DNA of 63,674 bases, filler included. It is 12 parts of 12 records of this genome, joined end to end, with 100 filler letters (N's around TTAATTAATTAA, not from the genome) between each part and the next. Parts side by side here need not be neighbours in the genome. Positions count along the whole stretch, not along the records: positions 25,408 to 30,142 come from SRR7504441_2016; 11 more parts are not named here. The stretch is one strand, 5' to 3'. The position numbers were made by a program, and so were the translations under genes. The notes beneath the pieces were generated by a model. The model was not told the origin of the DNA, searched no databases, and saw nothing but the letters and a program-made list of their open reading frames with translations. Positions within the stretch are counted from its first letter, which is position 1. Each line of letters opens with the position of its first letter. Below, in pieces: positions 3,232-60,092 of this stretch.

Positions 3232-3331
3232 NNNNNNNNNNNNNNNNNNNNNNNNNNNNNNNNNNNNNNNNNNNNTTAATTAATTAANNNNNNNNNNNNN
3301 NNNNNNNNNNNNNNNNNNNNNNNNNNNNNNN
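3232..3331. other. Artificial contig linker (N-run, TTAATTAATTAA, N-run); also at about 6542, 9854, 17092, 25308, 30143, 40795, 44147, 49191, 52928 and 59795
   Basis: Identical 100-nt spacer with stops in all six frames, present 11 times. Confidence 0.98.
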
Positions 3332-3406: not shown

Positions 3407-6400
3407 TTAGGATTTCTCGAGCAAGATACAGTGCCAACGATACATTGCTCCTGCGAGCGCCAACCGGCGGCCCCGATGGAATATCGCCAGCATCACTTGC
3501 ACCAGAACGATTGCTGATTGCGACGATTGATGCTCAGAAGTGAAACTAGAGATCTGTTTTCTACACTGCGCCAGTTCCATCTGCGCCCGCCCAATCAAGC
3601 ACGCCGTTTAGCACACGCTCATGCCTTGAGGTTATCTCTTTCTGCTTCAGTTTGCCTCAGTGCTGTGGCCTCGCCGAGCTCTTCAGCATGCTTCACTTCC
3701 GCCTGCATCTCAAATTCTTGTGCGGCCTGCACGAGTGCCGGTGAGCAGGCAGACATCACAGGCTGTGGGCAGACCTGCAGCAGCTGCTGCTTTACCCGCC
3801 GGAGCTCCTTGCACAGCTCGTTGTTCTCCCTACGGAGCGCCGCAGTCTCCTTGTACGCATCGTACGCATCTGGAGAATGTGACGGCTCCAGCTGGAATTT
3901 CTCCACTGATCCGCCAGCCTGGGCCGTACGAGGCTGCACACACAGCATGCTCACGAGCTCGAAAATGAGCTAGCGGCTGACTGACCGGTGATCTCGAATC
4001 CGATGGCATTGCCTGACCCAAGCTAGTGTCGAATAGAATATCGTCATCCACACCACCTAGCACGGATTCAGCATAGAGGCCCGACCCACTTGAGCACCAC
4101 TGGTGAGGGTGGAGAAGGCAAGCTCTTGCTTCGCCGCTTCATAATCAGACTGAAGCGTTGCATTCTCCGCATAGGCCTCGTTAAGGCTTTGCTGCAGCTG
4201 AAACAGCCGTGCATGCGTTGTATGCGCCGCCTCGACCTGTAACGGTTCTCATGGCAAGCCCGGGCAAGCCAATGTACCTCCTCCCTCTGTGCCTTAAGCT
4301 CCTTGCTGAGGTCCCTCCGCATCGCTCTCTCGTCCTCAAGCTGCTCGTGCAGCGCTTGCATCTTGACAGCCATGGTTGTGTTTTTCTGTTCTAACGCTGC
4401 CTTCGCCGTCAAGCTTCCAACGCTCTCCTCGATGATTGCCTACAAAAGTTAGAAATCAGCGAAATTAGAAGGGCGCTGCTCTGTCACCTCGATGGCCGGG
4501 GGCACCTTGTCGTCGTGCTGCATGTCTCTCTTCTCGCGCTCGAGGCTGAGTTCTCGCAACACTTGGTCCTTCTCTGCCTTGGCCTTGACTTCCAACCGGA
4601 TCAGCTCCTTCTTGAGGCCACTCAGCTGCTCATACACATCCGACAGCTCACTCTGAGCCTGCTGCTGCTGCTCCTTGGCGCCTGTGCACTCCAGCTGCTG
4701 CCGCTCTATCAGCTGCTGGGCAGACGCGAGCTCGCGCTCCGTCGAGGCTTGCTGCTGCCTCGCCTGCTGCATCTGCTGCTCGTGCACCGCTGCGTTCCGC
4801 TGCACGTCTTGCTCCGCCAGCCGCTGCTCTCCGAGGGCTTGCTTGAGCTGTGCTTTTGCATCGCCAAACTCTCTCACGAGGCTATCATGCGCTCCGCCTG
4901 CCTGCTCCATCTGCTTGATGGTCCCTGCCTGCTTGGCCAGGCGTGCCTTCAGCTCCTCTACCTGTGCAGACGCCTTCTGCAGCTCCTGCAGCCGCTCTGC
5001 CTCGATTGCGCCGTGCCTCTGGTACTCGCTCTTCAACTGCTCCTCAAGACGAGCAATCTGCCTCTGGCTGTGACCCACAACATTCTCAGACTCCCTGGTC
5101 ACAATCGAAGCCTTCCGCAGCTCAGACTGCAGCCTCTGGAGCTCCAGATTCCGCTCCCCGTCGCAATCAGTCAGGGTCTGGACCTGGGCAGTCAGCGACG
5201 CAATTGTATGCTGCAGTTTGTCGTTCTCAAGCTGCAGGTTGCTCTTATCTGTGGCCAAGCCGCGAGACTTGCGAGCTACCTCCTCGAGCTTTAAGCTGTA
5301 TTGGTTGAGCTCCTGTGTGGTGGACAGTTGCTCCTCTGTGAGCTGTGTCTGCATGCTTTGCTTCTGCACCTCAAGCTTGATAGTCTGCTCAGTTGCCAGC
5401 TGGAGCTTAATGCTGACTTGTCGGAGCTCCGTCTCCAGCTCAGCCAGCCTATCCTTCAGCCCCTGGTTCTCGTTCTCGCAGCTTTGCCGTGCATCCATCA
5501 GCTCTAACCGGTGCTTCTCGCTCAGCCTTTCCTGCTCCTGCTCCTGCTGCCTTAGCGCGCCCTGAACCTCATCCAGCCGACTCTTGAGCTTCTCAGCCGC
5601 CTCGCTGTAGCCCTCCGCACGAGACTCGGCCGCAGCAACGGCATCCGAAAAAGCCTTGTTCGTCTGTGCAAATCGTTCCTCGACCGTGCTGAATTCGCTC
5701 TTGGATTGCTCAGTTGCGCTCTGAGACAGTTCGAGCTCAGTCTCGAGCTGCTTAACTTGCTCGTTGGCGTTCTTGAGTTGGGTGTGCGCTGAGGCTAGCT
5801 CAGACTCCAACTTGAGCTTGCTCTCAACGTGAGTGTTGATCTCAGCCAAATACTTTTCTGTAAGACTGGTGATCTCGGCCTGGGTCTGCTCCTGTGTGGC
5901 CGACTTGTTCTTGATCACCTCGGCTTTCTCGCTCTCCAGAGTTCCAACAGCCTGCTGCAGCACCTGCCACACGCGCAGCCTCTCATTATACAACCCTACC
6001 TCAGACCAGACACCTGCTGCTCGGCCTGTAGATCTGCAATTTTTTGCTGCATTGCCGCCCCGGCAGCCTCCTGCTCATCCTGGCCATCACTCAGCTGAGC
6101 TTTCATTTGCTCCTCCAGTTCAGCGATCCGCGCCCTGGCGGTCTCCAGGCCCTCCTCCAGCTCATCCTTTTCCACCTGCATGCTGATCACCTGAGACTCG
6201 AGCTCCGAGATCATCCCGCTCTTCTCTGGCGAGGCTCGCTGCTTGACTGCGGTCTTAATGTCATCCAGCGCTCGCTTGGCCAATGCAAGCTCTGTCTGCA
6301 GCCGATCTTTCTCGTCGTCGCCGTCCGCGCTCTCTTGCAGCTGCTTGCTCACGGCCTGTTCCTGCTCTAAGCTTCGCTTGAGCTGCTTCAGTTCAGCTTG

Positions 6401-6541: not shown

Positions 6542-6806
6542 NNNNNNNNNNNNNNNNNNNNNNNNNNNNNNNNNNNNNNNNNNNNTTAATTAATTAANNN
6601 NNNNNNNNNNNNNNNNNNNNNNNNNNNNNNNNNNNNNNNNNGCGGCTGGCTGCCTCGGGCTCAGCCCAGACCACACACAGCCGCGCTCCGGCCGCCCAGG
6701 CACTCTGCTTCTCGCGCCATCCGGTAGGCTTTTTCCGGACTTGCAGGCAACATTTCGAGGCTTTTTTCGCTACTTTGGTGATGATCAGTACCAGTTTATT
6801 ATTTAT

Positions 6807-9853: not shown

Positions 9854-9980
9854 NNNNNNNNNNNNNNNNNNNNNNNNNNNNNNNNNNNNNNNNNNNNTTA
9901 ATTAATTAANNNNNNNNNNNNNNNNNNNNNNNNNNNNNNNNNNNNNNNNNNNNCCCCCCCCCCCCCCCCCCCCCCCCCCC

Positions 9981-12986: not shown

Positions 12987-13028
12987 CGATAACCATTGGC
13001 GTAAAGCATCGCGATAACCATTGGCGTA
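12987..13028. repeat. 17-bp direct repeat CGATAACCATTGGCGTA with 8-bp spacer
   Basis: Copies at 12987-13003 and 13012-13028; each contains a CCAAT box on the minus strand, upstream of the PX-ArfGAP gene. Confidence 0.85.
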
Positions 13029-17091: not shown

Positions 17092-17844
17092 NNNNNNNNN
17101 NNNNNNNNNNNNNNNNNNNNNNNNNNNNNNNNNNNTTAATTAATTAANNNNNNNNNNNNNNNNNNNNNNNNNNNNNNNNNNNNNNNNNNNNGGCGAACGT
17201 TTCACCGGTGACGAGCACCGCTCCGCCGACGTGCACGACCTTGGACATGTGTCGCCGAACCAGCAAGGTGGCGAGAGCAAGGTGGCGGGGTCGTGCGGCC
17301 AGCTTGCACGGCAGTCACTGGGGCCGCTGTGTTCGTCCGTTGAAATGACACAGACTCGTTCACGGCGCCGGCATGGTGTTTGCAGGGAGCCCTCTTCTTG
17401 AGCTGGCAAGTGGGGCCATGGTGTGGTCGCCACCCAGCAGCAGCGCGCTGCCGACGCTGCTGTACCGGCCCTCGGGCCCTGGGTGCAGAGGTACCAACTC
17501 CTGCGGCAGCGAAGAGCATGCGCTGGCGACCGGCGGCCACTTCGGCAGGAACACGCACCACTGCCAGCCACCGTACAACAAATTGCCCGCCTGCCGGCGA
17601 AAGCACTGAGCGCACCGAGCCGGACCACGAGCAGTGGACCGCACATTCATTTGCCGGACATGATGCATCGCATGATGCCGCGCCTCAGATAGCATTGGTA
17701 ACGCTTAGGCGGCGAACCGGTCGGCACAAAGTTCTACAATATCACGGCAGTATTACGGTACACCAAATCAGTTTATATGAGTATATTAGAGTAATCGATG
17801 AGCGTCGGACACATGAGAGCCCCAACATTACTTAATTACATGCG

Positions 17845-19763: not shown

Positions 19764-22700
19764 ATGCGCCGTTCGGCGGCATTGGTGGTAGCCGCATGGG
19801 CGGCGTGCGTGGCGGTCGGGCTGCCGTTTGGCGAGCTAGGCGCCGGCAATGCGACCGGACTGCGCAGCGAGCCGGTCGAGATCAAGCCTGCAGGTGGCCG
19901 CTCCCCCCCCCGAACGCTCACCGCTGCGAGCAGCTGATGTCAAGCTCGCGTTCGCGCAGCGCGACGCCGAGAAGCAAGCCGGGGAGGTGCTGGCGGGCGC
20001 GAAGAAGCTATCGCAGCTTGAGGTGCCCCGCTTGGTTTCGGGGCCCGGCTGATCCGATCGGCAGGCCGAGGACAAACTGGCGTCGGCCCAGGCCGGGCGA
20101 GACAAGCGGGCGGCCGCGGTGGCGCAGGCGGAGGTGGCCGAGGCCAAGGCCCGGCTGCGCGGGGCCGAACGCAACCAACGGCTAGAAGCCAAGGCCGAGA
20201 AGAAGGCCGATTGCGCGGAGCACGCCAAGGAAGCCGCGGCGATCACGGGTGAGATGCGGCTCAAGCAGAAGGCGGCCGAGGAGCAGCAGCGGGCGGCCGA
20301 CAAGAAGCAGCAGGTGCGGCCTGCGCACGCTTGACCGGGCTGACGGGTGCGGCAGGCCGAGGTGGATAGCGAGATGGCCAAGAAGCAGCTTGGACAGACG
20401 GAGGAGGAGGAGGCCAAAGCTTCGAGCAAGGCTGAGGCCGCTGAGAGCGCCGCGGAGGAGGCGGAGGCCGCTATGGTCGAGAGGAAGGCAGCAGCCAAGC
20501 TGGCAGACCAGAAGGCCCGGGGTGTCGCCAAGCTGCAAGCTGAAAAAGTCAAAGCGGTCGAGGAGGCTCAGCAGGCCGGTGTCGACCAGGCGGAGGCTGA
20601 GATCGAGAGAGCGACGGCCAGCGAGCAGCAGGCGGAGGCCGCGCTTGCCGCAGCCAAGGGCAGTGAGCAAGCCGAGACTGCAAAGCTCGACGCTGAGGCT
20701 GGCAAGGCGACAGCTCGGGTAGAGCAAGCGGATGCTGAAGAGGCTGCCAGAAAGGAGCAGCGCCGCAGCGCCGTGCAGGCCGCCAAGCAGCAGAAGGCTG
20801 CAGAGGAGGCTGCTATTGCAGCAGTCGCCAAGCAACGGGCAGAGGCAGCTGCAGCCGCGAGAGCTGCTATGCTTGCCTCGAGGCAGAAGGCAGCGGCAGC
20901 ACGACTGAAGGCCGAAGCCGAAAGCGCCAACCAAGCGGCATTGCGCCAGCAGGCCTTGGCGGCTGGGGCTGCTAACGAGGCGCAGCGGGCGGGCGAGGAG
21001 CTGCAGGAGAACACTCAGCTGGCCCGCGAGGCCGCCACAGCCAGGTCACAAGCCGAGCAAGCGGTCGACCAAGCTGAAAAGGTAGCCGAGGCTGCCGAAG
21101 GCCAAGCGACCAAGTCGGCGGCGGAGGTTGCTCCGGCCGAGACTGAGCTGGATCAAGTGCGCAGCTCGGTAGCTGGGAAGCAGCCGAACAGAGAGCAAGC
21201 AGTGCGCACAGAAAAGGAGTCCGTAATTAGACTGGATCGGGAGCTGGACGCGACCAACATCGATCGGGCGCAGGTGCTCGAGCGGGTTCGCAGGAAGGGC
21301 GACGCGAACATGGCCTCAGCCAACAAGGCGAGTGCCAAGGCCGCGGCTCGTTCGCAGAAGTCGGAGGTAGAGGAGGCAGCAGCAGAACGATCGGTCCAAG
21401 AGGGCGAGGAGCAGCACGAGAAGGAACTGACCAAGCAGAATCAGCTGGTGGACCAGGCCCAGAAATCGTACGACGCTGCGCTGAGGACAGCCAAGCAAGC
21501 CGCCAAGCGGAAGCTGGATCAAGTTGAGGACGAGGCGGCCGAGAGCGACAGGATGGCTGCAAACGCGGTGAATGGGGCCAAGCTCGAGACAGCCGCCGCT
21601 CTGGAGAAGCTCGAGCAGAAGAAGCAGCAGCTGCAGCACATCATCGACGACGCTAACAAGCTGGCTGACGAGCGGGTCACTCGCGCCAAGAAGCAGTTCA
21701 AACGGGACAAGCGAGAGAGCGAGCGACGCGCGGCCAAGATCGGCGAGCAGGCCGACCGGCGAGCCAAGCAAGCGGAGGCCGAGTTTGAGAACGAGCGCGA
21801 GCAGGTTGATCAGCAGCAGCTGGCGCCTGCCCCAGAGCCAGGCCAGCTGTCTGCCAAGGAGCAGATGTCCAAGGTCAAATCCGAGCTACGCGTTGAGGTG
21901 TTCAAGGAGATCGCCGAGACACAGAAGCAAGATGCGATCAAGGACAAGTCCACCGCGGCGCACGACGCCAAGGAGCAGCTCAGGCTGCTCAGGCAGCGGC
22001 TCAAGGCAGAGCGGCGCGAGGCGGAGGAGATCCAACAGGATGCGGTCAAGGAGCGGGACGAGCAGATGCAAGATGAGGTCGGGGAGCACGAGCGGGCGAT
22101 GCAAGCCGAGGAGAAGCTGGTCGAGCAGGCACGGAGCGTGAAGCTTGCAGGGAAGAAGATGGTGGCCAAGGCAGACGCAGAGGCGCGCGAGCAAGTTATC
22201 CGCCAAACAAAGGAAGAGGAGCAGCTCAAAGAAACCGTGGAGGAGGAGGCCAAGGCCCGCAAGTTGGAGAGTGCCAAGACACTGGCTGGGCTGAAGGAGG
22301 ACCTTGAGCTGCGGCAGAACGAGCAGAAGGCCTCGTCCAAAGATGCTTACGAGGCCGCCACGAACGCTAAGAAAGCAACACGCGAGGCCAAGCTTGATCT
22401 TGAGCAAGCTCGCGAGGTCGAGGCCAAGAAGGTCCAAGCAGCAGAGGCCAAGCTTGCAGCAGGCAAGACGGTGCTCAATGAGAAGGTGGTTGAAGCCAAC
22501 GAAGGCCCAAAGAAGGATGCTGCGCTGGTGACAGTTGCCAAAAACGCCCTGGACAAAGCCAAGAAGCGAGCGGAAGCGGACACGGCTGGGTTCACTCTTG
22601 CAGAGGCTGATATCAAGGTGCAGCGGAATGCACTGAAGGCAGCGGAGAAAGTCAACAACAATGCGGATATGGCTCAACAAGAAGCCAAGTCTACAGAGCA

Positions 22701-24855: not shown

Positions 24856-25408
24856 TCTCTTTGACATGTAGCACTTGTTGAGCATATTTAGCTTCGTATT
24901 TTATACCAGTACATGTATACACAAATATTAAAATCGATTTATCTCTGACAATGGATAATTATATCGTCCAAGAGGATGATTGTACATGTACATGTCATTA
25001 ACATGTTGTCGCGGCCTGTTCCTGTGGTTTGTGTTAATTAATCAACGCGCTACTCGTAATTTGTACCATGCCGACGTTTTCCGGCCTGGTCTGCGATACT
25101 TGAGTTCTAGGTAGTTGTTGGTCCTAAATACACAATAAAAGAAAACTGCGATTCACAAAGGCGCGGTTCCTAAGGTTCTGGTTCAAACGAGTACTCAGTC
25201 GCACTTGAGTTACCACCGTAATCAGGATGTCGACTCCTGGTGGTAGGACCAAGCAGCAGCCAAGCAAAACTTGCAGGATTCGAATTTTGCATGCAATTTG
25301 AAGCTAGNNNNNNNNNNNNNNNNNNNNNNNNNNNNNNNNNNNNNNNNNNNNTTAATTAATTAANNNNNNNNNNNNNNNNNNNNNNNNNNNNNNNNNNNNN
25401 NNNNNNNC

Positions 25409-25646
25409 GATGAGGTGCACAAGCCGCCGCCTCAGCCTGAGGAGGCCACGCAAGCACTGCCCGGCCAGGACACATCAGGTGGCTGACTGCTGCGGCTAGC
25501 CTGACCAGGGATGGCCAGCCCCGGAGCCTGACGAGCCGAGCAAGGACCCACTCGCCGCTTTCGGCGACTCCGGCAGTAAGCCGGTGGTGGAGGAGGAGAA
25601 GCCAGCTAGTGCGCCTGCGGCCTCCCCACTGAACGCTTTCTCTTGA
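25409..25646 (+). CDS. 3' end of a Pro/Ala/Glu-rich low-complexity protein (paralog of 59084-59794)
   Basis: ALPGQDTS, 40-nt intron, then APEPDEPSKDPLAAFGDSG...ASPLNAFS*. Confidence 0.6.
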
Positions 25647-26014
25647 ATCGTCGAGAGGATTCCTAGCTACACCCAGAGAGGTTCGTGTGTCAAGTGAGCG
25701 GCTCACACAATAACACCTACTCGTACCTCGGTATAATTTATGTACATGATTGTACCGTGCTCGTGCTCTGCTCGTGCTAGTACAATCATGTACCGGCTGA
25801 CAGTGCGTGATAAGTGCGTGATTGTACTGTACGAGTACATACTTGTACATGATTGCAAGTGTTTGGTAATAGGTTTAATCTTATAATCTATTCGGAGTGC
25901 GATTCGTATTCATGCTTGTGCTCAATCTCAGCGCACTTGGAACCAAGCTCGAGTATACGCCGCACATGCACCGAGGCCGTCAATGCAGTCCGGCTCAGCA
26001 GGTTGCGTCAGTTT

Positions 26015-28676
26015 CTACAGCTCGTCGTCTAGTCGATTCTTGTGGACGGGCTGCTCGCCCAGCTGGGCATTGAAGAACTTTCTGAGCCCTGGCACGTTGG
26101 GGGTTCCGTCGTACAGCACAGGCTTGGTCTTGGCCTGCTGCTTGAACAGGAAGACCATCGGGAACCCATCCACCTTGAGCCAGTCGGTTAGGGTTAGGGT
26201 TAGGGTTAGGTCCACCTTGAGCCAGTCGGGCGGCTCGTTCTCGCTGGCGTCCATCTTGAAGAATTTGACCCCGTTCGCCTTGTAAGCTGCCCCCTCCCCG
26301 TTGACGAAAGTGTCGTAGATCGGACTGAACCTGCCGCAGTGGTTGCACCTGGCCGCAGTCAGCACCAGCAGCCTGGCCTGCGTACCACGGCGCGTAGAAG
26401 TAGACCACGGCGTGCCCGCTGTGCTCCACCACCTTCTGGTCGAAGCTGCTCCCGACCAGCACACCCACCCCGTTCACCTCCGGCTCGGCCGGCTCGCTTT
26501 CGGACTTGCGCACCCGCTCGAGCTGTTTCCCATTCAGATAGTCGTCCGCCAGCTGCTGCAGCCCGGCCACAGACAACTCAAACTGGGCCGGCGCCTTGAA
26601 CATGCCGGGCCGCTGCTCATTCCGGCGGCCGTCCACCCGGATTGCGGGCAGGTTGTTGGGGTCGTTGGAGATCTTGAGCGAAGCGGCCACTTGAGGCATC
26701 TTGGGCGAGTTGATTGTTAGGAACACGATCCTGCCCTGGAACCTGGCCGCCGCCCCGGCCTGCTTGACCAGGGCCTGGTTGTGCTCCCAGTCGTGCCCGG
26801 GGAGCAACAGCATCACGATCGGGATCTGGTCGAACCGGGATAGCACCGGGCCAGCCTCCGGGCCAAAGTCGAGCACTGTGGGCACCCGCAGCCGCTGCAG
26901 CTCCGACCGGACCTTGTTGGCAGTGAACTGCCCGCCCTCGGCCACTAGCTCGGAGTGCCCATCCGGAAGCCGCACCCAGACGCCCAGCTGGGCCATCCCG
27001 GCGGGGGCGGCCTCGAGCACGGTGAGCCCGTAGCTGAAGAAGCCTCGCTCAGTCTTCATCACCGCAGCGGCCATTTTGCGCCCTTCGGCCCCGTCGGTCC
27101 GGGATAGCACGAAGAGCACCTTGGCGCCGGGCTTTTGGAGGAACTGGTCGCACATCTTGCTCGAGATGAGCTCGCTGGCCCCCTTGGCCAGATGCTTGTC
27201 CAGCCAGAGCCGCACGGCCGGTCCAGTCACCTCGCCCACCAGCGGCTCGGACACCGGCTCGCCCTTCTCGAAGAGCAGCACGGTGGGCACGGTGGGCGAG
27301 TGGTCCCGGTTCATCTCGCTGGGAGCGGTCACGTCATTCTTCCCGAACCCGATGTCATGCCCGGCTGCCCGGAGCTCGACGGCCATCGAGCGGAAAGCAG
27401 GCAGCAACTCTAGCGACTCGGAGGACCACGGCGCGAAGAAGAGCACGGCCACGTACTGGTGGTCGGCCTTGAGCTTGCCGAAGGCCTGGTCGTCCAGGTC
27501 GGTCACCTCGCTTTGGTCAGGCTCGGCCGCCTGCTCGCGCTGCTGCTGCTCCTGAGCCTGCAGCTTCCCATCCAGAAACTCCTGGGCGAACTGCTTGAGC
27601 CCGGCCGCCGTGATCGGCTGGTCGGTCCGGTCGCCCCGGCTGAACGCGAAGGTAGGCCTGTCCTTCTGATTGATGGCGTCGATTGCGATCTGCGGGAACG
27701 AGCTTGTCGACATGCCCATCGCAGAGACGATCTGGCGGTACTTGTGCCCGTCGCCCACCACCACCGAGAACTGCTCCGGGTAGGCGGCGGCCAGCTCGGC
27801 CAGCTGCTGCTTGAGCTGGCTGTTGTCGGCGGCCGGGTCCAGAAATGAGACCAGCACTGGCAGATTCCTCTCAAAGTACTTGCGCGAAGAGTCGTCGTCG
27901 ATGTCGCCCACCAGCGGGACGCTCTTGGCGATCATCCAGCTCTTGAGCCCGGCCGGGTCCAGCTGGCCCCCGAGCGCCAGGCTCTCGACTCGCTCCAGGA
28001 AGCTGCTCGACACCAGCAGCTGCTCGCCTTCTAGCCCTCTAGGGCTGCCCTCCATCCAGCACCCGGTCTGCGAGCAGCCAGCCGCCCCCCGGCAGCCGGC
28101 CCCGGTGGACTCGAACAGCGCGAATATGTTGAAGGCCACCCGATTCTTCCGGAGCTCGAGCGCGGCCGACTCGAGCGCCCGCCAGCCGGCCGACTGGTTG
28201 GACTGGAGCAGCCCGACGTAACGGACTTGCTCGGCCGGGCGGCGGGCGGTGAGGTCCTGGCAGTGGTCGACGGTCTGGATCAGGTTGCCGGCCAGCTTGA
28301 GGGTCATGTTGGTGGAGGTGTCCACCCAGTCGACCAGCTGGATCTCGTTCTTGTTGCCCTGGTACACCCCGAGCAGCTCCGCCCCCTTGAACAGCTTGAC
28401 CGTTGGGAAGCCCTGGATCTTGTGCCGAGTGGCCAGCTCGCCCTCCGCGGTGGCGTCCACCTTGCCCACCAGCACCTTGCCCGCCATCCGGGTGGCCGCC
28501 TTGTCCAGCACCGGGGCCAGCTCCTTGCAGTGCCCGCACCAGGGCGCGTAGAAGCTCACCAGGGTCACCGCGTTCGGGGCCTCGGTCAGCGCCTGGTCGA
28601 AGTTGGCTCGAGTCAGCTCCACCACTTCCTGCGCTCCACAGGCCGCCACCAGCAGCACAGCCAGCGCCGCCCGCAT
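26015..28676 (-). CDS. PDI: Protein disulfide-isomerase family protein (signal peptide, WCGHC and WCNHC thioredoxin domains, C-terminal DDEL)
   Basis: MRAALAVLLVAACGAQ signal; FYAPWCGHCK; inactive FFAPWSSES domain; FYAPW|CNHC split by intron 26349-26385; putative intron 26174-26215; ends RLDDEL*. Confidence 0.92.
26169..26229. repeat. Interstitial telomeric repeat (TTAGGG)3TTAGG flanked by perfect 19-bp direct repeats
   Basis: TCCACCTTGAGCCAGTCGG at 26169-26187 and 26211-26229; telomeric tract 26188-26210. Confidence 0.97.
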
Positions 28677-28696
28677 CTCGTGAGTGATGTAATCGG

Positions 28697-28710
28697 CCGT
28701 TGCCCAACGG
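28697..28710. promoter_or_regulatory. Palindromic CCGTTG-CC-CAACGG motif in the PDI/DOLK bidirectional promoter
   Basis: Lies in the 44 bp between divergent ATGs; CCGTT-N4-AACGG recurs at 33746-33759. Confidence 0.45.
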
Positions 28711-28720
28711 CAGCCCTCCC

Positions 28721-30142
28721 ATGTGGGCGGGTGAGGCGCTGGCGGCGCTCGCTGTGGGGCTGGGCGGGCCTGTGGCGCTGCTTCCGTTGAGCCACCCGGC
28801 CTGGCTGGTGGGCCTGCTCTCGCTGGCCGCCGAGGCCGCCCCGAGCCCGGCTGAGCAGTCCGGGGCCCGCCCGGGGCCCGCCTCGCCGCTGGTGGCCCAC
28901 TGGCTGCCGCTGCTGCTGGTCGGGCTGCTCTGCCTGGACCGGGAGCCACCGCCGGCCCTGGCCTGGGCCGGCTGGGTGCTCTGGCAGGCCAGTCTGGCCG
29001 GCGCGGTCCGGCTGCTCGCGCCCGGCCGCCCGGGGCGGCTGGTGCTCGGACTGGTCTGCGCGGGGGCGGTGGATGGGCTGGGGCCGGGGCCGGTGGTGGC
29101 CGGGCTGGGGCTCCGGATGGGGTTCGAGCTCGGGCACGGCTGGCTGCTCGCCGGGCTGCCTGGGGTGTTCTCTGGCGCCGAGGCCGCGATGGTGATGGCC
29201 GGCTGGATGGCAGCCGCCGGGGGGATGGTGGGGGGCTGCCTGGCCCCCCCAGCCGGGCCGGAGGGCGTGCTCGGGCGGGTGGCGGCCGGGCTGCTGCTGC
29301 TGTGCTCGGGCCTGGCCCCGGGGCTCGGGCTGGTCCTGAAAGCCACCGGGAGCGGGCCTGGGGGCACGGCGTGCTTCTACGGGCTGGCTGGGCTGGCCGG
29401 GCTGGCCGGGTACGCCCCGCTGCTCTGGTGGCTCACTGGGGAGCACCCGCTGCTCTGGCTCGCCGGCTACCTGCTCGAGGAGCCCGCCCGGGCTGGGGTG
29501 CTGCTCGGCTGGGCCGGGGCGCTCGCAGCCGGGTGCGGAGCAGCCAGCTGGCTGCGGCGGAGGGCCCCGCTCATAGTGGTGCGCAAGGTGTTCCACCTGC
29601 TGGCGGTGCTCATGTTCTGGCCGGTCAGCCTGGCCCGGCCCCAGCTGATGGCGCTCTCTTACGCGGTGGCGCTCTCGCTGCTGCTGCTGCTTGAGCCGGT
29701 TCGCTGCTTTGAGCTCTGGCCAGCAGGTCCGGCGGTCCGGCGGTTCATGGGCCAGTTCGTGGACCAGCGCGAGACCGGGCCGGCCCTGTCCACCCACTTG
29801 TACCTGCTGCTCGGCTGCGCGCTCCCGCACTGGCTGGTGCTGCTCGCGGGCCTCCCGATCGAGCTCGGGCTGGCTGGCCTGATCGTGCTCGGGCTGGGAG
29901 ACGCCGCCGCCTCGGCTGTGGGCAAGGCGGTCGGCCGGGTGCGCTGGCCGGGCTCCAACAAGACGGTGGAGGGCACGGCGGCGGCCGTTTTGTGCTGCGT
30001 GGTGTGCGGGCTGGCGTGCGGCGAGTGGAGCTGGCTGGGCCTGGCGGCGCTGTGCTGGCAAAGCGTGGCGGTCTGCCTGCTCGAGGCGTTCACCGAGCAG
30101 CTGGACAACCTGGTGCTCCCGGTCGGGTTCGCAGCTGGGTTG
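28721..30142 (+). CDS. DOLK: Dolichol kinase, 3'-truncated
   Basis: RKVFHLLAVLMF, FVDQRETG..STHLYLLLGCALP, GLGDAAASAVG, WPGSNKTVEGT; many transmembrane segments. Confidence 0.92.
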
Positions 30143-30299
30143 NNNNNNNNNNNNNNNNNNNNNNNNNNNNNNNNNNNNNNNNNNNNTTAATTAATTAANN
30201 NNNNNNNNNNNNNNNNNNNNNNNNNNNNNNNNNNNNNNNNNNTAGTTTGCATCACACTCGCCGTGACAGGAGGATCGGGCGACTGAGCTAGAACGGCGG

Positions 30300-34900: not shown

Positions 34901-37900
34901 TTAGTTCTCCATCCGTGAGAGCACCCTTTGTTCCCTCTCTGCGTCCACAGGCTCGATGTGCTTCGGACTGGCCAGCAAACACTCAGCTACAGAGCACAGG
35001 TTGCAACCCATTCTACAAGTATTAGTTAAGGAATCATACATGAATGAATAATCACTGACCTGCGTCCTTTAGCCGGTCGCCGGGGGCTCCGGATTGGCTT
35101 CTCATCCGTCTCCGGGTGATCAAATTCACATTTGCCTGTCGACTCAAACGTTGAGCATTTCTGGCTGCGACGCCACTCTGCGCATGCTGAGCTGTCCGGG
35201 TTGCGAGGTGGAGTCTCCCTGCTGCCTGTCGGCTGCTCCTGGGAGGGTGTACTGGGACTACTGGCCTTCCTCTCCTGGCTTTTGTTCAGTCTGGCCAACA
35301 TAGCAGCCCCCTTGGCGTCGAAGGCCTCGAATCCTGGTGTCGGGGTTGGTTTGATCATTGTGTTTCTCCAGGCGGGGCCGTCCTTGCGCCTTTTGGCTAG
35401 CATTGCTGCGCGCTTGTGTGGTGACACCTTAGGGCTGGTCACTCCCTCCTCGCCGGGGCTTAAGTGCTCCATGCTGTCAGGACTGGCTGAGGCCTGCTGT
35501 GCCCGCGCTTCGCGATACTGCTCCACAGCAGGCTGAACAGGCACAGCAGGTGCGCCGATTGAATCTGGAACAGGCACAGCAGGTGCCACCGGCACTTCCT
35601 GCGCCTCCTGTTCCGGTTCAGCTGCTGCTGTCTCATTGGCCTTGCCCGAAGGCTGCGGCTTGTCTTTCCGAGGCTTTTCGCCGCCGGGTTTCGGACCCCT
35701 ATCAGATTTACTTCGCTCGTACTTGGCGAGATCGGAAGCCGAAAGATTTCCTCGTTTGAGCTTTTTATACAACATGGATGGGGACTGAGGCTGCACATAG
35801 ACCGTCAGTCTCCACAAGCAAAGCTAGGTGGCACCTCCGGCGGCTGGGCTGGGTTGGAGCTCTCGCCTTCCGGTTGCGGCTGGCTTTCTGGCTGAGCACC
35901 GGGCTGCTTCTCAGATTGAGCAGTGCTTGGCTCTGGGGCTGGAGACGGCTCTGTCAGCATATTAGCATGAGCGTGGCTGGGTGGACGCACTCGGCTCTTC
36001 GGGTTCCAAGGTGGGGGTCGAGGGCATCGGCGACCGCTGCTTTGTGGAAGTTGGGGAGAGAGGCGAGAATGCGCTAAGAATCTTGGCAATGACCGGCTGA
36101 TTGCTGCAGATTTGGCACTTCTGAAGCTGCTCTTGGAGCGTTGTCATCTACCGCCACCGCTGAGACCAGCCGAACTGTCTGTACAGGCACCTTCTTTGCA
36201 ACAGTCTGCGAGTGGCGCATTGCTTTCTTTACCATGTTAGACTCAGCCTGTTGCTCATCAGTCAGGTGCAAGGCCGAATGTGGCACCTTCATCGCACTGG
36301 CCTGGTCAGCCAGCTTCCTATGCGCCTCCTCCAACTCAGACTCTAACCTGTGCCAGCAGTCAGCAGATGCCAAATCAACCAATCACCGCTGAACACGCTC
36401 GTCTGACTTTGCATCCGAACCACTTGCGGCTATCGCGCCCTCCGCTGCCGCCAGCTTTCTGTGCGCTGCCTCCAGCTCTGATTCGAGCCTGACCTTACTA
36501 TTTAGCTGGTCAGCTGCGGGGCAAGTCGCACCGTTGGGCCTTCTGGTCGGAGAGCTGTTGAGCTTGAATGAGCTCCTCCCTCTGTGAAGAGAGCTCGTTC
36601 AGCAGCTCCTCTTTCTGCATGGCCATTTCCTGCCGGAGCCGTTGCACTTCGGCCTCGAGCAGTTTGGCTTGCTCGCTGCTCACTGCACCATGCCTCAGCA
36701 CAGCCACTAATTGGTCCGGGCTGCCTGCATCGAGCGAGACAGGCGCAGCAAGCTCAAAAACCCGCGACACGCCATCATCGCACGCTGTGACTAGCACCCC
36801 TCCGGGGTAGGCGTCGGTAGATCCCTGCACCGTTGCCCCGTTAGATTTGTTGGTTGAGGCAGAACCCACCGCCACTGCCAGAGATGGCACTTCGCCACAG
36901 TGGCCGTCAAAGCTGGCATTGCACTCCCAGGTGTTAATGTCCCAAGCCTGGCCGCCAATCGGGCACTGGGTCGCGGATCGAGTTCACCTTGACTGTGCTG
37001 TCTGCTGAGCACGAATAAAGCGCTTCCCGATGCCACAGCAGCCCTGTCACCTATCGAGCCCCCGGTAACCCGATCCGCAGCACGCCCGGCAGCCACCTCT
37101 TTCTTATGCACTTGTTTTGCCACCTCCGGATTCCCCAGCTCAGCATCTTGCACGAACGCCTTCCAAATCCGTACCATCCCGTCCCCCCAGCCTGACAAAC
37201 CGTCAGCTCCCGCCTCGTGCCAGGCTCACACCCGTAACTAGTTCGCCGCTGTCCACCAAAAGACAGCTGGACCAGCAGGGCGTCCCCAAACAGCGAAAGC
37301 ACCGGAGTATCCGCCAACCGGCCCCTGGACTCACCATCACCCTTTCGTCCTTCTCCCTGCCAGCTCAGATGAATCGTGTGCACGCAGTGTTGGCTCGTCG
37401 CACCATAGCTTTGCAGAGCCGTCCTCAGAGGTGGTCACAAGCCACTCCTCGGCCCTGCAAACGGCCTTAGCTGGGGCCGCCGGCTGGCTCGCCCACCGGT
37501 CTGTATGCTGGATGCTCCAGACCTGCTCATGGCTCAGCTGCAGCAGTGTGCAGCGGGCGCACCTCCGCATCATGCGCTGTGAACGCCAGATCCGGATCGA
37601 CTACAGTGTGCTGGTCAGTGAGAGACCACACGCACACTTCCCCCGTCACCAAGCCACCTGGCGCGCTGCGGTCAGGTCGACCGCTCCCACAGCGGCGGTA
37701 CCGAACAGCGCGCTCCCTCCCGCGCACAGGCAGAGCAGCCAATCATGGGCATCGAACCGCCTGAGCTCGCTGGCAGCGGCCACGTCCCACATCCGCGCAG
37801 TACAGTCGCCACCGCTTGAGAAGATGTGGTCGGATTGGTCGCTCCGGCACACAGCGCCGACCCAGGCTTTGTGACCCTCGAACGTGGCGGTGCATTCACC

Positions 37901-38269: not shown

Positions 38270-40597
38270 ATGGACAAGGAGCAGGAGGCTGAGGCTGGAT
38301 CGAGCGAGGCCAAGGAGAGCACGGGAGTCCTGAGGAGGAGCCTCCGCATCCGCAACACCAAGAGCCCGAGGTCTCCCCCCCCGCAACCTGCGGGCGTGCT
38401 CACCTCACCCCCTTTTGTCACAGAGTGGACGAGGACAAGGAGAACGTGGTGAACGGAAGCACGCCGAAGAAGCTGAAGCAGAAGCGCGCCACCCGATCGC
38501 GGGCGAACAAGCCCGAGTGCGTCCCGACAAAGGTGCGCTTGCGAACCCCGCTCTGCCAGCCGCCCTGACCGCGCCCGTGTGCTGCAGGACCCGTTCACCA
38601 CGCTGCAAGAGGACACCGCTGATGAGGTGCTCCAGTGGCTGCATCCCGAGCAGGCCGTCAACACTGCGCTAGTTTCGAGTCATTGGCGCCGACTTTCTAG
38701 TCATCGCAGCCTGTGGCTGAGCCTGAGGCGCAAGTACCCACCTGGCGAGGAAACCGGCGTCTACTGGCGAGTCTTCTACACACCAACGCCCAACGTTGAC
38801 GCGGGAAGCGGTGATGAAGCACGGTGCTACCGCATCCGCGACCGAGCGACGGGCGAGATTGTGCTGGCGAAGTGTGTTCCAATCAGTAAAGAGAATGGCG
38901 TCAGCAGATGGCTCCTGCGAGAGGCGGCAATCCTGTGGGACATGAACCATCCGTGCATAGTAAAGCTGAAAGGCGCAGTAGTCGACAAGGAGAACGCTTG
39001 TCTTTTCTTCCAGGACTGCGGCAGCACTAATCTTCACAGGATCGCATGCAATGGGGACAACACGCCAGCCACCATCAGTGCAGGCGAACCTGTTGAGGCA
39101 GCCAAGATTCCTCTGGACCAGCTGCGGACGCACATGTTCCGTATCCTGTCCTCTGTAGCAGAGTGCCACGCGCACCAGATCATTCACCGGAACGTGAAAC
39201 CAAGCAAGTTCCTCGTCGACGATGGTGGTGTTTGTTGGATGACCTCGTTCACATCCTCTCTCGTCAATGGAGGCTGCATCAAGCCGCGGCAGCTAATGCC
39301 CAGGATGGGGACGACCCAATACCTTGCTCCTGAAGTTCTGCTTGGTGCGAGTGAGCTGGAGCTGGACTACACTGAATACACCGAGAAAGTCGACATGTGG
39401 TCCGCTGGACTGATCCTGGCAGAAATGGCAGCCGGTGGGCCGCTGTTCGTAGTCGACAGCGAAATCGATCTGCTCTTCTCCATCTTCCGTCTGCTCGGCA
39501 CTCCGAACGAAGAAAACTGGCCTGGGGTCTCCAACCTGCCCTGCTCCATTGAAAACTTCCCAAGTTGGGCTCCGAAAGCACCGATTGCAGACATCTTCGG
39601 GTTCCTCGGACCTGACGGCTGCCACCTGTTGAGCCGGATGCTGACATACGACGGCTCGCGCCGTATTGGAGCATTTGAGGCACTTCGTCACCCATTCTTC
39701 ACTAACCATGGACATGTACCCAAGGTTCTGCCGCTGGATCCGGTTCCCTCTGTAATGAAACAGCACCTGACGGAGACTCAGTGCATTGTTTGGGCAACCT
39801 TGCTCAAGCGGGAGCAGGCCATCCCAGCGCTGAAAGATTTCCTCGCTGAGCAGGACTCAGAGGACTGTGAGCAAGTGACTCAGACAATGCGAGCTATCCT
39901 GATCGACTGGCTGAACGAGATTTCTTACTCGTGGTTCATGCGCGCCGAGCGCCGAGCACTCCATGCGGCTGTGTCGTGCCTCGACCGCTACCTGGCCAAG
40001 GCTCACGTCACCAAGGACAACCTGCAGCTCGTCGGTGCCACATGCTATGCCCTTGCAGCAAAGCTCGAAGAGGCCGAAGTCATATCTGCAGCTGGATACG
40101 TGACAATCTCTGACAGCGCCTTCACCGAGGACGAAATGCGCGACTGTGAGATGGCAATCGCACACACCCTGCAGTGTCAAGTCGGACTACCCACCGTTGC
40201 AGACTTTGAGCCACTGGTCGCGGAGACACTGGCCCTCGAATCTGGGAATGATGTCTGGGCTGACTCAACTGTCGTGCTCCTCGCGCAAATGCTGAGCGAC
40301 GCAATGCTTCTCGGATATCACGTTGGCGATCACCAATGGCGCCCATCCACCATCTGCTGCACTGCTTTCACTATCTCGTCCTTAACGCTGTCCGACAAAG
40401 TCCCAACAGCCATCCTGAATCCCAAGGAGGTGGGGAAGATCGTTGGCTGCGTCGAAGACATGTATGCTGCCTTTGACAAGGTCAACACGACCAGCCTCAG
40501 GCACACCACCTCGAACCCCAAGTATCAGAGAATCCGTGACACTTCGCTCACTGACAAGCAGAATGTCATCTCGGCGCTTGAATCTATCCGAAAGTAA
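38270..40597 (+). CDS. F-box-like, CDK-like (probable pseudokinase) and cyclin-box fusion protein (about 739 aa); introns 38371-38423 and 38533-38587
   Basis: F-box-like LQEDTADEVLQWL...LVSSHWRRL...LW; CDK features LLRE, YLAPEVLLG, DMWSAG, DSEIDLLFSIFRLLGTP; cyclin box MRAILIDWL...LDRYL...LQLVGATC..LAAKLEE, all in one exon. Confidence 0.9.
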
Positions 40598-40894
40598 GCG
40601 GCCACCAGAGAGACTGACACAGTCTCGCAACTTTTGCAAACTTACTGGCAACCTGACGTGTTCGCTGGTCCTGATTGGAAAGGTGTGTAGAATACAATGC
40701 GTACCACCACGTGAATGAACGTGTACTCCCCAAGCGTGATCACTCATGAATCCGACTCATCAAAGATGATACGAAGTGAGCTCATGTGATAAACNNNNNN
40801 NNNNNNNNNNNNNNNNNNNNNNNNNNNNNNNNNNNNNNTTAATTAATTAANNNNNNNNNNNNNNNNNNNNNNNNNNNNNNNNNNNNNNNNNNNN

Positions 40895-43749: not shown

Positions 43750-44373
43750 CGTAGAAACTAGCATGTAGTGTGATACCGTCACGATACAAAATAAATGTGA
43801 TACAAACATGCATATTTATTGTTGGCAACTAGAAGCAGCTCATAGGTCAGCTCGCTAGTAGAGCATGCCGCGCATCACTTTCTATCTCCTGATCGCTCGG
43901 TGCGTGACCACTGACAACCGAGTCGTTGCCACTCTCTACAGTGTCTCCGGCTGCAACCTTCAACTCAGCAGCTGCTTGCTCCTGCAACACAAATTCGGTC
44001 ACGATCGACACAGGACACCGGTCACCTCCTTTTGTTTCAGATAGTCTGCGTAGACCATCGTGAGGAACCCAATCGTGACCATCACAGCACCTGCACCTTC
44101 TTAATCAGGCAATCCTGTAGCTTAACACCTTCCTAATAAGGGAATANNNNNNNNNNNNNNNNNNNNNNNNNNNNNNNNNNNNNNNNNNNNTTAATTAATT
44201 AANNNNNNNNNNNNNNNNNNNNNNNNNNNNNNNNNNNNNNNNNNNNTGCTTTAGTCCGAACGGAAACACTTATTATTTTTTTCGATGTTCCGTTGAAATC
44301 TGCAGCCACTGCTCGAACCAAATAATATTTTCGGTCGTTGGCCTTTTCTTCGCTCATCAAAAAACAAGGAGCA

Positions 44374-48928: not shown

Positions 48929-49290
48929 CAAACGCTGGAGATCCCACTTCACGAGCGCAAAAGAAACGGCTTCTGTGAGAGCCAGGAGAGGGGGAGAGGG
49001 GACTGAAGTGGGAGCTGGCCTATAGCCCTATGCGGATGACATTGTGCATGTCGACATGACTGCTGAGGCTGTCTCAGTTGCTGTATCGAAGCTGTCGACT
49101 GCTTCGCTTCAGGAGGCAGACATGGTGGTCAACTCGGAGCTGAACGAGCTGAAATTCGGAAGGGGTCTCCTCAAGCCGGATCGGGCGAAGNNNNNNNNNN
49201 NNNNNNNNNNNNNNNNNNNNNNNNNNNNNNNNNNTTAATTAATTAANNNNNNNNNNNNNNNNNNNNNNNNNNNNNNNNNNNNNNNNNNNN

Positions 49291-52200
49291 CCGCCACCTT
49301 CAGCATCGTTCGGGTTGCGCTGCGGGTTGTAATCCGAGCCAGTCCATTGGAAGTGAATATAATCATCCTTGTCGATGCAGAGATCATTGGGCACGAAGTC
49401 ATACTCCACAGCAGGGTAAGTCTGCACAATGTTGCCACGTTTGCCTCTGACGTTCAGATTGTAAATCTTAGCCGTCGCAGACATCCCACGCGGTCTTGGT
49501 CGAATCGCGAATACATATGAACGGTCCTGAAAGGTTCTGCCATACTGGTTGGTGTTCACAGCAAGTGAGAGGAAGGATTTGGTTGGGTTAGCCCCAATGC
49601 CGAGATACGGATCCTGTACAACAGGGCTGGACGACCTCCTTGACCGCGGGTTCTGGTTGTGCCGAGCATCTGTCATTGGCTGGCCTTCGTTATTCCATGC
49701 GAAGTAGTCTGCTGTCGAGATGTTATACCTCAGCCGGAGCACGCAGTTCTCATTGATGTGCTCGGGGACTTTCCAGATGTACCGGTTGGCATTTACACCG
49801 TGAGGGATGGCCGCTTCCATATCCTTGCGGTTTGTGGCTGTACTGCGCGAATTACCGAGGTGGTTTTCCCTGGCTACAGAGCTCTGCCCACCTACACAGT
49901 CCACTGTTGGTATCTCGTTGGGTGTCTGGCCCTCCACAGCGGTCTCTGCCTGCTCGCTAGCGGCTGATGTAGCTTGAATCTCCGACTCCAGCCAGCTTTC
50001 ATCGTTGTTTTCTTCTAGCAATCGACGACCCCTTTGTGTATCCGGTTTGGGGGCCAGTGCAATGTCACAGTAGGACCAGAAGGGGACACCCTTATCGTTT
50101 GGTCCGCCTGACACGATGCTTTTAGGGACAGCTGTGGCACCAGCATTGCCCCTGCAACTAGCAAAGCATCCAGCATTAGCTGGTGCTTCGCATCCATACT
50201 TTGGAACCCACTCCGCGCAGTGACTTGGCTCAGCTGTCAATGAGCTCGCCCACTTTGAGAGGTCTGTGGAGTCAACGAGTTCACCCACTTTGGAGTACAG
50301 TGTACACTGTTGCCCTCCTGTGTTCGCCTGCACTTTGTTGGGAGTCCAGCCATGACAAATGTTGCGGTTAGAATTGGGAAGTGGACATGGTACGTAGGTC
50401 CAGCCCTTGCAGTTTGTTGTAGTTGAGCATGCATGTGCACACCACGAAGCTCCAGGTTTGTCCTTTGCAGTCAATTCGTAGCGATAAGCATGATCACTAA
50501 AGTACATATAGGCTCCCCACATTACTGTCAACACGACGCTATCTGAGCCATACACCTTCCCCGGCTGGCCATACACCTTCCCCTGAGGGGGCTGCACACA
50601 GAAGCACCAAGGTGCTCCGTGCAGGGCCCACGAAGGCTGCGCGCATGCTCCGGGAGTTTTGCTCAGTGGAGAATTGGATGCAAAGTTGACCACATCGGAC
50701 CATTTCCGGCACGGGCAGTTGGCAGTGGCCTGAGTCTGCGGTATGATATTTGTGACGTCCTCATCGCAGCCTTTTGTACTGCACAGCTGATATGCAGGGT
50801 CTGCAGCTCCTCGAGCGGTCATTGGCGCTTCTAGCGTCCCATCTGGCATCTTGACACCGATAGATGCAGCTGCAAGCTCTTCGCCAGGGCTGGAGGTAGC
50901 CACAAGTGCAACTTGCCGGTTTGCTGCAAGTCTCTGAGGTGACGAGGCAACCCACGCTTCAGCCCCTTTCCCTGTGCCTCTGGCAATCACTTTCCCGTCA
51001 AGGGTGAGCTGAGCCCCAGCCTGGCACACCAGCAGTCTGAGCCAATCGAGCAGCATCAACACACCTCATTAGAGAGCATAAATGTCCAGCTACCACCCGC
51101 CTTGGGCCGAAGAAACCCAGTCAGCCTCCTAAAGTTTTTGTTGCTGAGACCTACAATATTTTTGATCAGGGCGGCCCCAACCAGTGCCATCCATGCGCAC
51201 CTCCTGAGGCCGGCTCGCACTTACAAACAACATTTGAAGAAGGGAACTTATAGTCACACGATCTTAACTGCTCCCTATCGAAGGCACAGCGATCTCGCTC
51301 CGGGCCATTGTCATCCCATGCTGCAGTGCACTTGAGACCTCCGCCTTTGATTCCCGCGCAGTATTCGTTACAGTTTGCATAGGCGGGCGGTGCGGGGGGA
51401 GGGGGTGGGCAGTACTGCTTCTGCTTGCACGATATGGCACAATACTGCTTATATGGCCATCCGTTGAACGTAGCGACGCTCTCGCACTCACTAGGCTGGC
51501 AACCCGAGCTCGAATCCCAACAACCTGTTCTTCGGGCCCCTGTCCCGTCGCTTTTTTGGAGAAGACGCCGGCTTGCAGACGGCTGTCGAGCTGGCTCATT
51601 CACACCCGAAAGGTCAGTCTTCTCTGTCACGTCTCCAAGCTTTGTCTTCACCTCTCTGGGGGTTGATGCTTGTACCTTCTCTATCAGCGCAGTTGCGCAG
51701 CTCTCCGGACAGCATAGCCTGATATCATTGGTGTACTTATCATCGTTGCACATCTTTTGTGTGGCGGCCTTTGCGCACGTGTCACAGGGCTCGTTTTCAC
51801 GAGCACCACAGATTTTGAGACCAGCTGTCCCCATGTCTTTCAGGCACATGTCGCTATTGGTTTGCTTCTGCTCTGGCGTATTGCTTGATCCGCCCCTGGC
51901 TTCAGTTTTGCACACATACCTGAATTTATTGGTCCTCTGCTCAGGCGGGACTGGGTGTTGTTGGAAAACAATAAGATCCTCTCCACCCTGCCCTACCCAT
52001 TCCCCCATTCCCCCGAGGGGGATGACAAGGCAGCCTGGCGGCAGGTTTCTCCACGTGTTAGGCTGAGAATGAATAGAAGAGCCCCGCCAAATTTCTGTGC
52101 TCCTTGATCTTATTTTTAGAAACTCGCCCGCTGTGTTGCATTCTTTAGGGTCTGTGACTTGAGTGAAGCCTTTAGGACATGGCACTGTTGCACCATTCCA

Positions 52201-52927: not shown

Positions 52928-53027
52928 NNNNNNNNNNNNNNNNNNNNNNNNNNNNNNNNNNNNNNNNNNNNTTAATTAATTAANNNNNNNNNNNNNNNNN
53001 NNNNNNNNNNNNNNNNNNNNNNNNNNN

Positions 53028-59794: not shown

Positions 59795-60092
59795 ANNNNN
59801 NNNNNNNNNNNNNNNNNNNNNNNNNNNNNNNNNNNNNNNTTAATTAATTAANNNNNNNNNNNNNNNNNNNNNNNNNNNNNNNNNNNNNNNNNNNNGAGGA
59901 CCCGGAGGACGCTGCGCTTAACCAGAAGCGGCAGGTGGGTACCTAGGCTGGCCAAGGTGAGACAGTGGGCAGGACGCAGCAGATTATTTACAATTGATCA
60001 TAGAGGACGAGGAGGAGCAAGAGGAAGAGTTGGCTAATCAATAACTGCGTAATCAATTGGCCAAGTCTAAGCAGATTTTATTTCAACGATGC

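Follow-up and report, generated by a model that had tools for sequence, protein, structure and literature searches.

The last exon of a PDI-family gene, found in a window of 63,674 bases of joined contigs from a marine eukaryote, is interrupted by a telomeric insert, in which 23 bp of TTAGGG repeats lie between two identical copies of a 19-bp exon segment. This insert is very probably a real and recent repair scar and, judged from its letters, the 42 nt which it adds appear to carry every signal of a newly made intron except for an AAG 3' splice site. The explanation put forward here as a whole, i.e. that a scar of telomerase-type break repair is spliced out as a new intron, stands at about even chances.

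The insert and its host gene

On the minus strand, which codes for the protein, positions 26229..26169 read CCGACTGGCTCAAGGTGGA + CCTAACCCTAACCCTAACCCTAA + CCGACTGGCTCAAGGTGGA. A repeat search returned the two 19-nt copies as a direct repeat of 100% identity (26169-26187 and 26211-26229, spacing 42) and detected no inverted repeats within 25900-26500. The telomeric tract between the copies (26188..26210, minus strand, 23 bp) has the coding-strand sequence CCTAA(CCCTAA)3, which on the plus strand is (TTAGGG)3TTAGG, it contains no deviating hexamer, and the first two bases of the downstream copy (CC, 26187-26186) continue the telomere register. The first-pass annotation had described a 19-bp duplication around 23 bp of TTAGGG repeats and a plus-strand left flank ending in GG, in register with the tract; the former is borne out to the base and the latter agrees with the sequence. 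In the upstream (5') copy (26211..26229, minus strand) AAG|GT would provide the exon end and the 5' splice site, the GT being at 26215-26214, and the downstream (3') copy (26169..26187, minus strand) would provide the AG of the 3' splice site at 26175-26174. The 42-nt GT-AG unit which was claimed at 26174..26215 (minus strand) is indeed present and its excision keeps the reading frame, while its retention would mean an in-frame insert of 14 codons. The last of its four CTAAC branch-site-like motifs is located at 26187..26191 (minus strand), and its branch A at 26188 is 14 nt away from where the unit ends.

The telomeric 12-mer TTAGGGTTAGGG has two overlapping matches in the 63,674-base window, both of them at this site, against 0.01 expected, and none of 100 shuffles reached two. 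The tract is the only run of at least two TTAGGG units in the window, and only five direct repeats of at least 17 nt at a spacing of 20-150 nt are present in the whole of it.

The host gene (26015..28676, minus strand) lies in a contig of 4,735 bp (window positions 25408-30142, record SRR7504441_2016) and was recognized from its translations and from homologues of 40-59% identity with Thioredoxin and Thioredoxin_6 Pfam domains. It consists of exon 1 (26386-28676, minus strand) and exon 2 (26015-26348, minus strand), the latter carrying the insert, and codes for a protein with a signal-like N-terminus, three thioredoxin-like domains and a C-terminal DDEL; the stop is at 26015. The homologue search gave closest relatives of 55-59% identity at best, and generic PDI clusters were returned by a protein atlas search. 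The first thioredoxin domain contains CGHC and the KIQGFP motif, the presence of which had been pointed out earlier, and the last one contains CNHC. In the middle domain (27400-27440, minus strand) APW is kept and SSES replaces CxxC. Since this APWSSES is conserved in the four closest homologues, the middle domain is predicted to be catalytically dead in this PDI subfamily. The two exons are separated by an existing GT-AG intron of 37 nt (26349-26385, minus strand; GTACGC...CTGAC...CAG), which splits the APW|CNHC active-site motif, is frame-shifting and on excision yields APWCNHC. At the position of this intron all five of the closest homologues are contiguous, four with APWCQ[YF]C and the fifth with SPTCKYC.

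About 130 nt downstream of this intron, inside the last thioredoxin domain, the telomeric insert adds 14 residues which are absent from all five of the closest homologues (P0003-P0007). In the alignment these proteins run contiguously across the site as ...P[ES][FY][VL]K[VL][DEP]G[FY]P..., and the residues on either side of the insert are direct neighbours in them, i.e. the empty site is present at the protein level in five of five homologues of 40-59% identity. In a structure search with the exon-2 translation against 2djj_A (the a' domain of a fungal PDI), query residues 1-43 were aligned with chain residues 37-79 and residues 59-92 with 79-112; the residues of the insert have no partner, and the two aligned blocks abut in the chain. 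The site lies two residues ahead of the GFP loop of the last thioredoxin domain. Since in the thioredoxin fold this is the cis-proline loop beside the active site, 14 additional residues there are unlikely to be neutral. Excision of the unit yields a protein sequence which matches the five homologues and 2djj_A, in agreement with the earlier statement that the conserved protein (DWLKVDGFP) is restored. A degenerate pattern made of the downstream repeat copy and its flank retrieved no metagenome contig with near-identical DNA, filled or empty.

Look-alike inserts in public metagenomes

Contigs of public metagenomes were scanned with a pattern of two AGGT motifs, the first at most 20 nt ahead of CCCTAACCCTAACCC and the second at most 30 nt after it, and at least 115 loci were obtained. 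Both the flanking AGGT motifs and the C-strand orientation were imposed by the pattern and, for its hits, are not a result. The listed loci cover a GC content of 0.34-0.76 and have nothing in common with the window besides the hexamer tract. Many of them share the build of the PDI insert, with a perfect (CCCTAA)n tract set between two copies of an exon-like segment X. Using a rule-based finder, a flanking non-telomeric direct repeat with a score of at least 14 was detected at 36 of the 124 pattern tracts, in 34 of the 115 listed loci, which bears out the expectation of the first-pass annotation that comparable cases exist elsewhere. In the case of control pseudo-tracts, placed 150 or 300 nt away on these contigs, only 6 of 292 were flanked by repeats, and these were mostly simple repeats.

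The listed loci contain 499 perfect tracts of at least 15 nt. Repeats flank 55 of them, which correspond to 48 independent sites with repeats of 12-44 nt; across the class the repeats are about 10-45 bp and the tracts 17-90 nt long. Some of the listed repeats contain a single mismatch, which suggests age, and some sites are reiterated (X-tract-X-tract-X). The mismatched repeats and the reiterated sites thus speak for real features of the genomes that are ageing, and against artefacts of assembly. The unit length, counted as one repeat copy plus filler, leaves the remainders 0, 1 and 2 on division by three at 13, 16 and 19 of the 48 listed sites, respectively; the look-alike class is without a multiple-of-three constraint.

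Open reading frames (ORFs) were used as an argument only on contigs with a GC content of up to 0.53, because on the GC-rich ones both strands are open and strand calls based on ORF length are unreliable. On the former contigs, long frames on the C-strand-sense side are joined when one unit is taken out exactly and are broken by read-through. This was observed for L005 (271 codons upstream and 211 downstream, unit of 56 nt), L060 (159 and 156, 59 nt), L059 (178 and 36, 86 nt), L030 (29 and 159, 62 nt) and L088 (70 and 102, 67 nt). The downstream exon of L005 carries an ELMO domain, and in L021, which codes for a RelA/SpoT-type protein, the HD_4 domain is matched in two stretches with a unit between them. 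The best named matches of the L006 and L005 proteins are from Cafeteria (53%) and Barthelona (34%). L006 was dropped as an ORF example, its upstream ORF losing homology ahead of the insert. These look-alike genes need their units removed, which supports splicing at the level of the class and is no proof for the window copy.

Only 11 repeat-flanked sites lie outside the pattern selection, and with these few GT-AG was found at 4, GC-AG at 1, GA-AG only at 5 and none of them at 1. Repeats having AG|GA and no AG|GT were seen in L030 (site 627), L059 (525), L063 (696), L066 (776) and L088 (840), and AG|GC with no AG|GT in L029 (1506). Exact removal restores ORFs at several of these AG|GA and AG|GC sites; either GA and GC donors are used there, or the inserts are unspliced. 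The GC-rich loci L001, L007, L009, L010, L021, L029, L061, L070, L094, L101 and L104 contain several degenerate telomere-like tracts per kb, with the variants CCCTGA, CCCTCA and GCCTAA, and many of these tracts end in ...CTAACCAG|GT. By their appearance they look like older, decayed members of the class within genes.

Splicing, retention and the source of the filler

In order to compare the unit with local introns, the window was searched for GT...AG intervals of 20-120 nt whose excision joins two well-scoring frames and where read-through is impossible, and the best candidates were inspected. Five introns were predicted in this way, at 4440-4487 (minus strand, 48 nt, 5' end GTGACA), 20023-20064 (plus strand, 42 nt, GTGCCC), 20314-20355 (plus strand, 42 nt, GTGCGG), 36348-36386 (minus strand, 39 nt, GTGATT) and 26349-26385 (minus strand, 37 nt, GTACGC). 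Homology backs only the last one, the intron of the PDI gene, and the other four are backed by ORF continuity. Their 5' ends are GTG (4) or GTA (1), their 3' ends CAG (4) or TAG (1), and their branch motifs, CTGAC in three cases, CTGAT and CTAAC in one each, are 9-12 nt from the 3' end. The candidate unit starts with GTGGAC, contains the four CTAAC motifs and ends at the first AG after them. The earlier claims that 42 nt is a common intron length here and that the repeats supply CTAAC close to the AG both proved right, as the predicted introns are 37-48 nt long, two of them exactly 42 nt, and the distance of 14 nt compares with their 9-12 nt. From such features of the sequence, excision of the insert as a 42-nt intron seems marginally favoured.

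Several points weigh against this reading or against its extension to a class. The candidate 3' site is AAG and not the YAG found in all five predicted introns (CAG in four and TAG in one), and this is the only signal of the candidate which mismatches the local introns. The unit is a multiple of three and free of stops, so that the frame stays open on read-through and gains 14 residues; a tolerated coding insert would have to have both properties, and a spliced intron would have them by chance in about 2 of 9 cases without needing them. The remaining approx. 59 kb of the window, the 11 other contigs included, contain no second telomeric insert. That TTAGGG is the telomere unit of the organism itself is an assumption, no telomere repeats having been found at the contig ends within the window. 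In case of the metagenome hits the AGGT content is ascertained and not observed, and as an internal control the G-orientation pattern gave 18 matches within the listed loci versus 9 extra matches of the C-orientation pattern. An orientation bias of the tracts was therefore not retained; among the 80 listed loci with at least three tracts, all tracts are on one strand in 41 and on both strands in 39, and the sole hint of a bias is that the repeat-flanked sites are co-oriented on 5 of 6 multi-site contigs. Eight sequencing runs, which were marine or seawater metagenomes and metatranscriptomes, were also compared with the window, and in none of them was the share of the sampled words above 0.09. 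Contig pieces of up to 100% identity came from two metatranscriptome and two metagenome runs, thus these samples contain the organism or close strains; no contig or joint across 26169-26229 was found in the four runs, and this has no bearing on splicing, an empty allele or the habitat.

A further such point comes from another insert of the window. At 35535-35586 a perfect 19-bp direct repeat surrounds 14 nt of non-telomeric filler, by which 33 nt are added in frame, i.e. 11 residues, to a minus-strand ORF (35029-35823). The coding strand is the minus one (codon score +10.8 vs. -68 to -97 in the other five frames), and it has no GT-AG, the AGGT being on the non-coding strand. Since the insert is in frame and its AGGT is on the wrong strand, it must be translated. 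It is retained, and both exonic inserts with 19-bp repeats are stop-free multiples of three. As to its filler, 12 of the 14 bases are identical to 2575-2586 in another contig, and the filler may be templated. Two more duplications with filler were noted, at 12987-13028 (17-bp repeat, 8 nt of filler) and at 50547-50583 (16-bp repeat, 5 nt of filler), and these events suggest that such duplications are a frequent repair outcome in this genome.

The explanation which competes best is that the insertion is real and remains unspliced or partly spliced, the 14 extra residues before the GFP loop being a tolerated variant or a recent harmful allele. The open frame, the AAG site and the persistence of the 35535-35586 insert in frame, where the coding strand offers no canonical splice option, all fit with this. 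However, the stretch around that insert is of low complexity and has no Pfam match, while the telomeric one is in a conserved fold in which the five homologues and the solved a' domain leave no room, the GT, the four CTAAC motifs and the first downstream AG are all at the spacing of local introns, and the listed look-alike inserts are mostly not multiples of three. We consider retention as rather unlikely, though it is a rival of some weight. Every sequence-level claim of the first-pass annotation has stood, and comparable cases were found; its reading as a whole is supported in part, with splicing as a prediction.

For the origin of the filler, the flank bases which continue the telomere register were counted at each junction. 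In the listed loci and the window 21 sites are free of filler on either side, and 14 clean sites, including that of the window, were left after the reiterated sites and the repeats with telomere-like ends had been dropped. On the side from which the G strand would be synthesized (the antisense strand's 3' end), at least two in-register bases were present at 12 of the 14 clean sites, for which, with a chance of 1/16 per site, the binomial p is approx. 3e-13. On the opposite side this was so at 4 of the 14, and for all of the 21 filler-free sites the respective numbers are 16 and 10. The window copy has two in-register bases on the start side and none on the opposite one. Such a bias would be expected under telomerase priming and is the same as that of the published mammalian insertions. 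The insert was probably made by telomerase, or by a telomerase-like copying of a telomere template, at a staggered break.

According to the proposed mechanism a short telomeric filler would have been used to repair a DNA break within the last PDI exon. About four TTAGGG units would have been added, either by telomerase or by a telomerase-like copy of a C-rich template, to the antisense strand at its 3' end (...GG), and this end would then have been rejoined across the staggered break, where fill-in would duplicate 19 bp of the exon. With AG|GT in the duplicated segment, and with CTAAC supplied on the coding strand by the C-strand repeats, the 42-bp scar would hold both splice sites and branch sites between them, spaced as in the host. 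Most likely, it would be removed from the mRNA as a new intron, and the normal protein would be restored.

Two further features of the listed loci bear on the polymerase. In a subclass of lower GC content CCCTAA-TTG(G) precedes the second repeat copy; it makes up 16 of the 69 listed tracts ending in CCCTAA, all on contigs with a GC content of 0.47-0.53 (loci L005, L012, L030, L040, L060, L063, L066, L080, L088 and L096), and its repeats are long (19-40 bp) and often start with GAGGT. On the G strand this is a fixed CCAA ahead of the first TTAGGG, which may be telomerase RNA copied just beyond the template, or the fixed end of a separate element. Head-to-head (TTAGGG)n(CCCTAA)n arrays, found inside the contigs of L011, L026, L032, L053, L076, L083, L101 and others, are what one would expect if a break were joined after repeats had been added to its two ends.

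It is improbable that the filler has another source, i.e. that telomeric DNA or a C-rich RNA was captured or reverse-transcribed (target-primed, LINE-like), or that an introner-like telomere-repeat element was inserted. Duplications of variable length, here 10-45 bp, are typical of target-primed reverse transcription, and the CCCTAA-TTG(G) ends of the 16 tracts look like a fixed element end. On the other hand, the sites share only the perfect hexamer, in tracts of 17-90 nt, and have neither terminal inverted repeats nor a fixed duplication length, the window copy starts in register and is without extra bases, and the fixed CCAA is equally well explained by telomerase RNA copied 3' of the template (cf. 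TERC-ITS in the consulted part of PMC8537989). An amplification or assembly artefact which is absent from the chromosomes, e.g. a chimera from single-cell whole-genome amplification, is very unlikely: the source assembly is fragmentary (12 contigs of 3-10 kb), one contig starts with 27 consecutive C (9954-9980), at a contig end where a poly-G/poly-C sequencing artefact is probable, and neither the four runs nor the metagenome pattern search yielded an independent DNA contig bearing the insert, but the two exact junctions would need reads carrying both of them, for which a graph error alone would be insufficient, the junction has the in-register signature of telomerase priming, and the same architecture is present in 34 listed loci on independently assembled contigs of 0.34-0.76 GC, some of them with diverged repeats.

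The window itself is composed of 12 separate contigs of 3.2-10.5 kb each with a GC content of 0.53-0.675. They are joined by 11 identical spacers of the form N44-TTAATTAATTAA-N44 (3232-3331, 6542-6641, 9854-9953, 17092-17191, 25308-25407, 30143-30242, 40795-40894, 44147-44246, 49191-49290, 52928-53027 and 59796-59895). Distances and neighbourhood across the spacers are meaningless, because the window consists of joined unrelated short contigs. Pfam scans of 18 ORFs of the window revealed no taxon marker gene. Elsewhere in it, a single open frame of 706 residues (38477-40594, plus strand) combines F-box-like, protein-kinase and cyclin N-terminal domains in an unusual fusion, and a 41-nt tandem duplication (30 bases identical) sits within AT-rich sequence at the last contig's end (63586-63656).

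Relation to known routes of intron gain

Short interstitial telomeric insertions made by telomerase at double-strand breaks have been described in primates, rodents and the horse (PMC2246262; PMC7215372; PMC8537989). As far as the consulted parts of these sources go, 60% of the horse and human insertions have at least two in-register bases, a target duplication occurs at 3 of 66 horse loci and is ascribed to staggered breaks (PMC7215372), and in the TERC-ITS of vertebrates bases have been copied from the telomerase RNA next to the template (PMC8537989). The first-pass annotation had named mammalian insertions at repaired breaks as a precedent, which is well founded in view of the published in-register bias (PMC7215372). 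The window insert is like them in its short perfect TTAGGG tract, its insertion in one step and its direct target duplication, which in mammals is occasional (PMC7215372), and their head-to-head tracts and template-adjacent telomerase RNA bases have counterparts in the listed metagenome loci. In contrast, the mammalian insertions are reported in the same parts as absent from coding exons and as rarely duplicated, whereas the window insert lies in a conserved exon of a protist and has a 19-bp duplication (10-45 bp in the class) together with a complete GT-branch-AG unit. An effect of intronic tracts on splicing is only raised as a question in the part of PMC7215372 which was consulted.

Introns gained by error-prone repair of double-strand breaks, whose splice sites are covered by short direct repeats, have been reported in Daphnia, Drosophila and Aspergillus (PMC3020277, consulted in part). 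The window insert resembles these introns in its flanking exon repeat with AG|GT, in the filler between staggered ends and in its recent look; as in the Daphnia type, an exon repeat covers both splice sites, here a perfect one of 19 bp with AAG|GT in both copies. In those introns, as described there, the filler is captured or random, while that of the window would be a defined enzymatic product with CTAAC in each repeat, by which a successful intron birth would become far likelier per event.

Introners, reportedly transposon-derived intron families, occur in Micromonas, pelagophytes, dinoflagellates and others; those of Pelagomonas are the subject of a preprint, seen in part (10.1101/2021.10.25.465678). 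Like the window insert, they are insertions into genes of aquatic protists, their target-site duplication is co-opted for a splice site, and in some lineages there are many copies per genome. In contrast to them, neither a conserved element sequence nor terminal inverted repeats are present, the length of the duplication is not fixed, that of the tract varies, and there is a single copy in the 63 kb of the window. The insert does not fit an introner or another transposon-derived intron, as no inverted repeat was found, only the hexamer is shared with the listed loci and the duplications vary between 10 and 45 bp. In the model attributed to Rogers, introns are said to be created by the tandem duplication of an exon segment containing AGGT. 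The likeness is that two copies of one exonic AG|GT serve as the two splice sites and the original message is restored exactly; the difference is that here the duplicated segment is only 19 bp, and the body of the intron, including its branch site, would be foreign filler.

A coccolithophore genome published in 2026 is intron-rich and has pervasive interstitial telomeric tracts, and no link between the two is drawn in the consulted part of the paper (PMC13518057). A full-text literature search, which did not extend to subscription journals and supplements, found no paper linking telomeric insertion to the birth of introns. The origin of new spliceosomal introns is a long-standing open question, for which introners and the rare capture of random DNA at repaired breaks are the accepted routes. 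If the explanation given above is true, filler made by telomerase would be a third route of intron gain, which is driven by an enzyme and needs no element. Repaired breaks in exons would far more often be harmless, owing to the branch-site motif in every repeat, and the interstitial telomeric tracts of some algal genomes would be tied to their intron richness.

More tentatively, telomerase may be a recurrent maker of introns in marine protists. A break in a transcribed gene would be healed with a target duplication, the C-strand repeats would serve as ready branch sites, and any AG|GT in the duplicated exon segment would provide both splice sites, so that the scar would be spliced at once and survive; over time, such scars would decay into ordinary-looking introns. 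In the window insert we see a single example, young and free of mutations, and it lies in a conserved gene. The listed metagenome loci, by their sequences, suggest that the process is widespread and that its products are of different ages, and the look-alike inserts in many other marine microbes hint that the enzyme which builds chromosome ends can also create introns.

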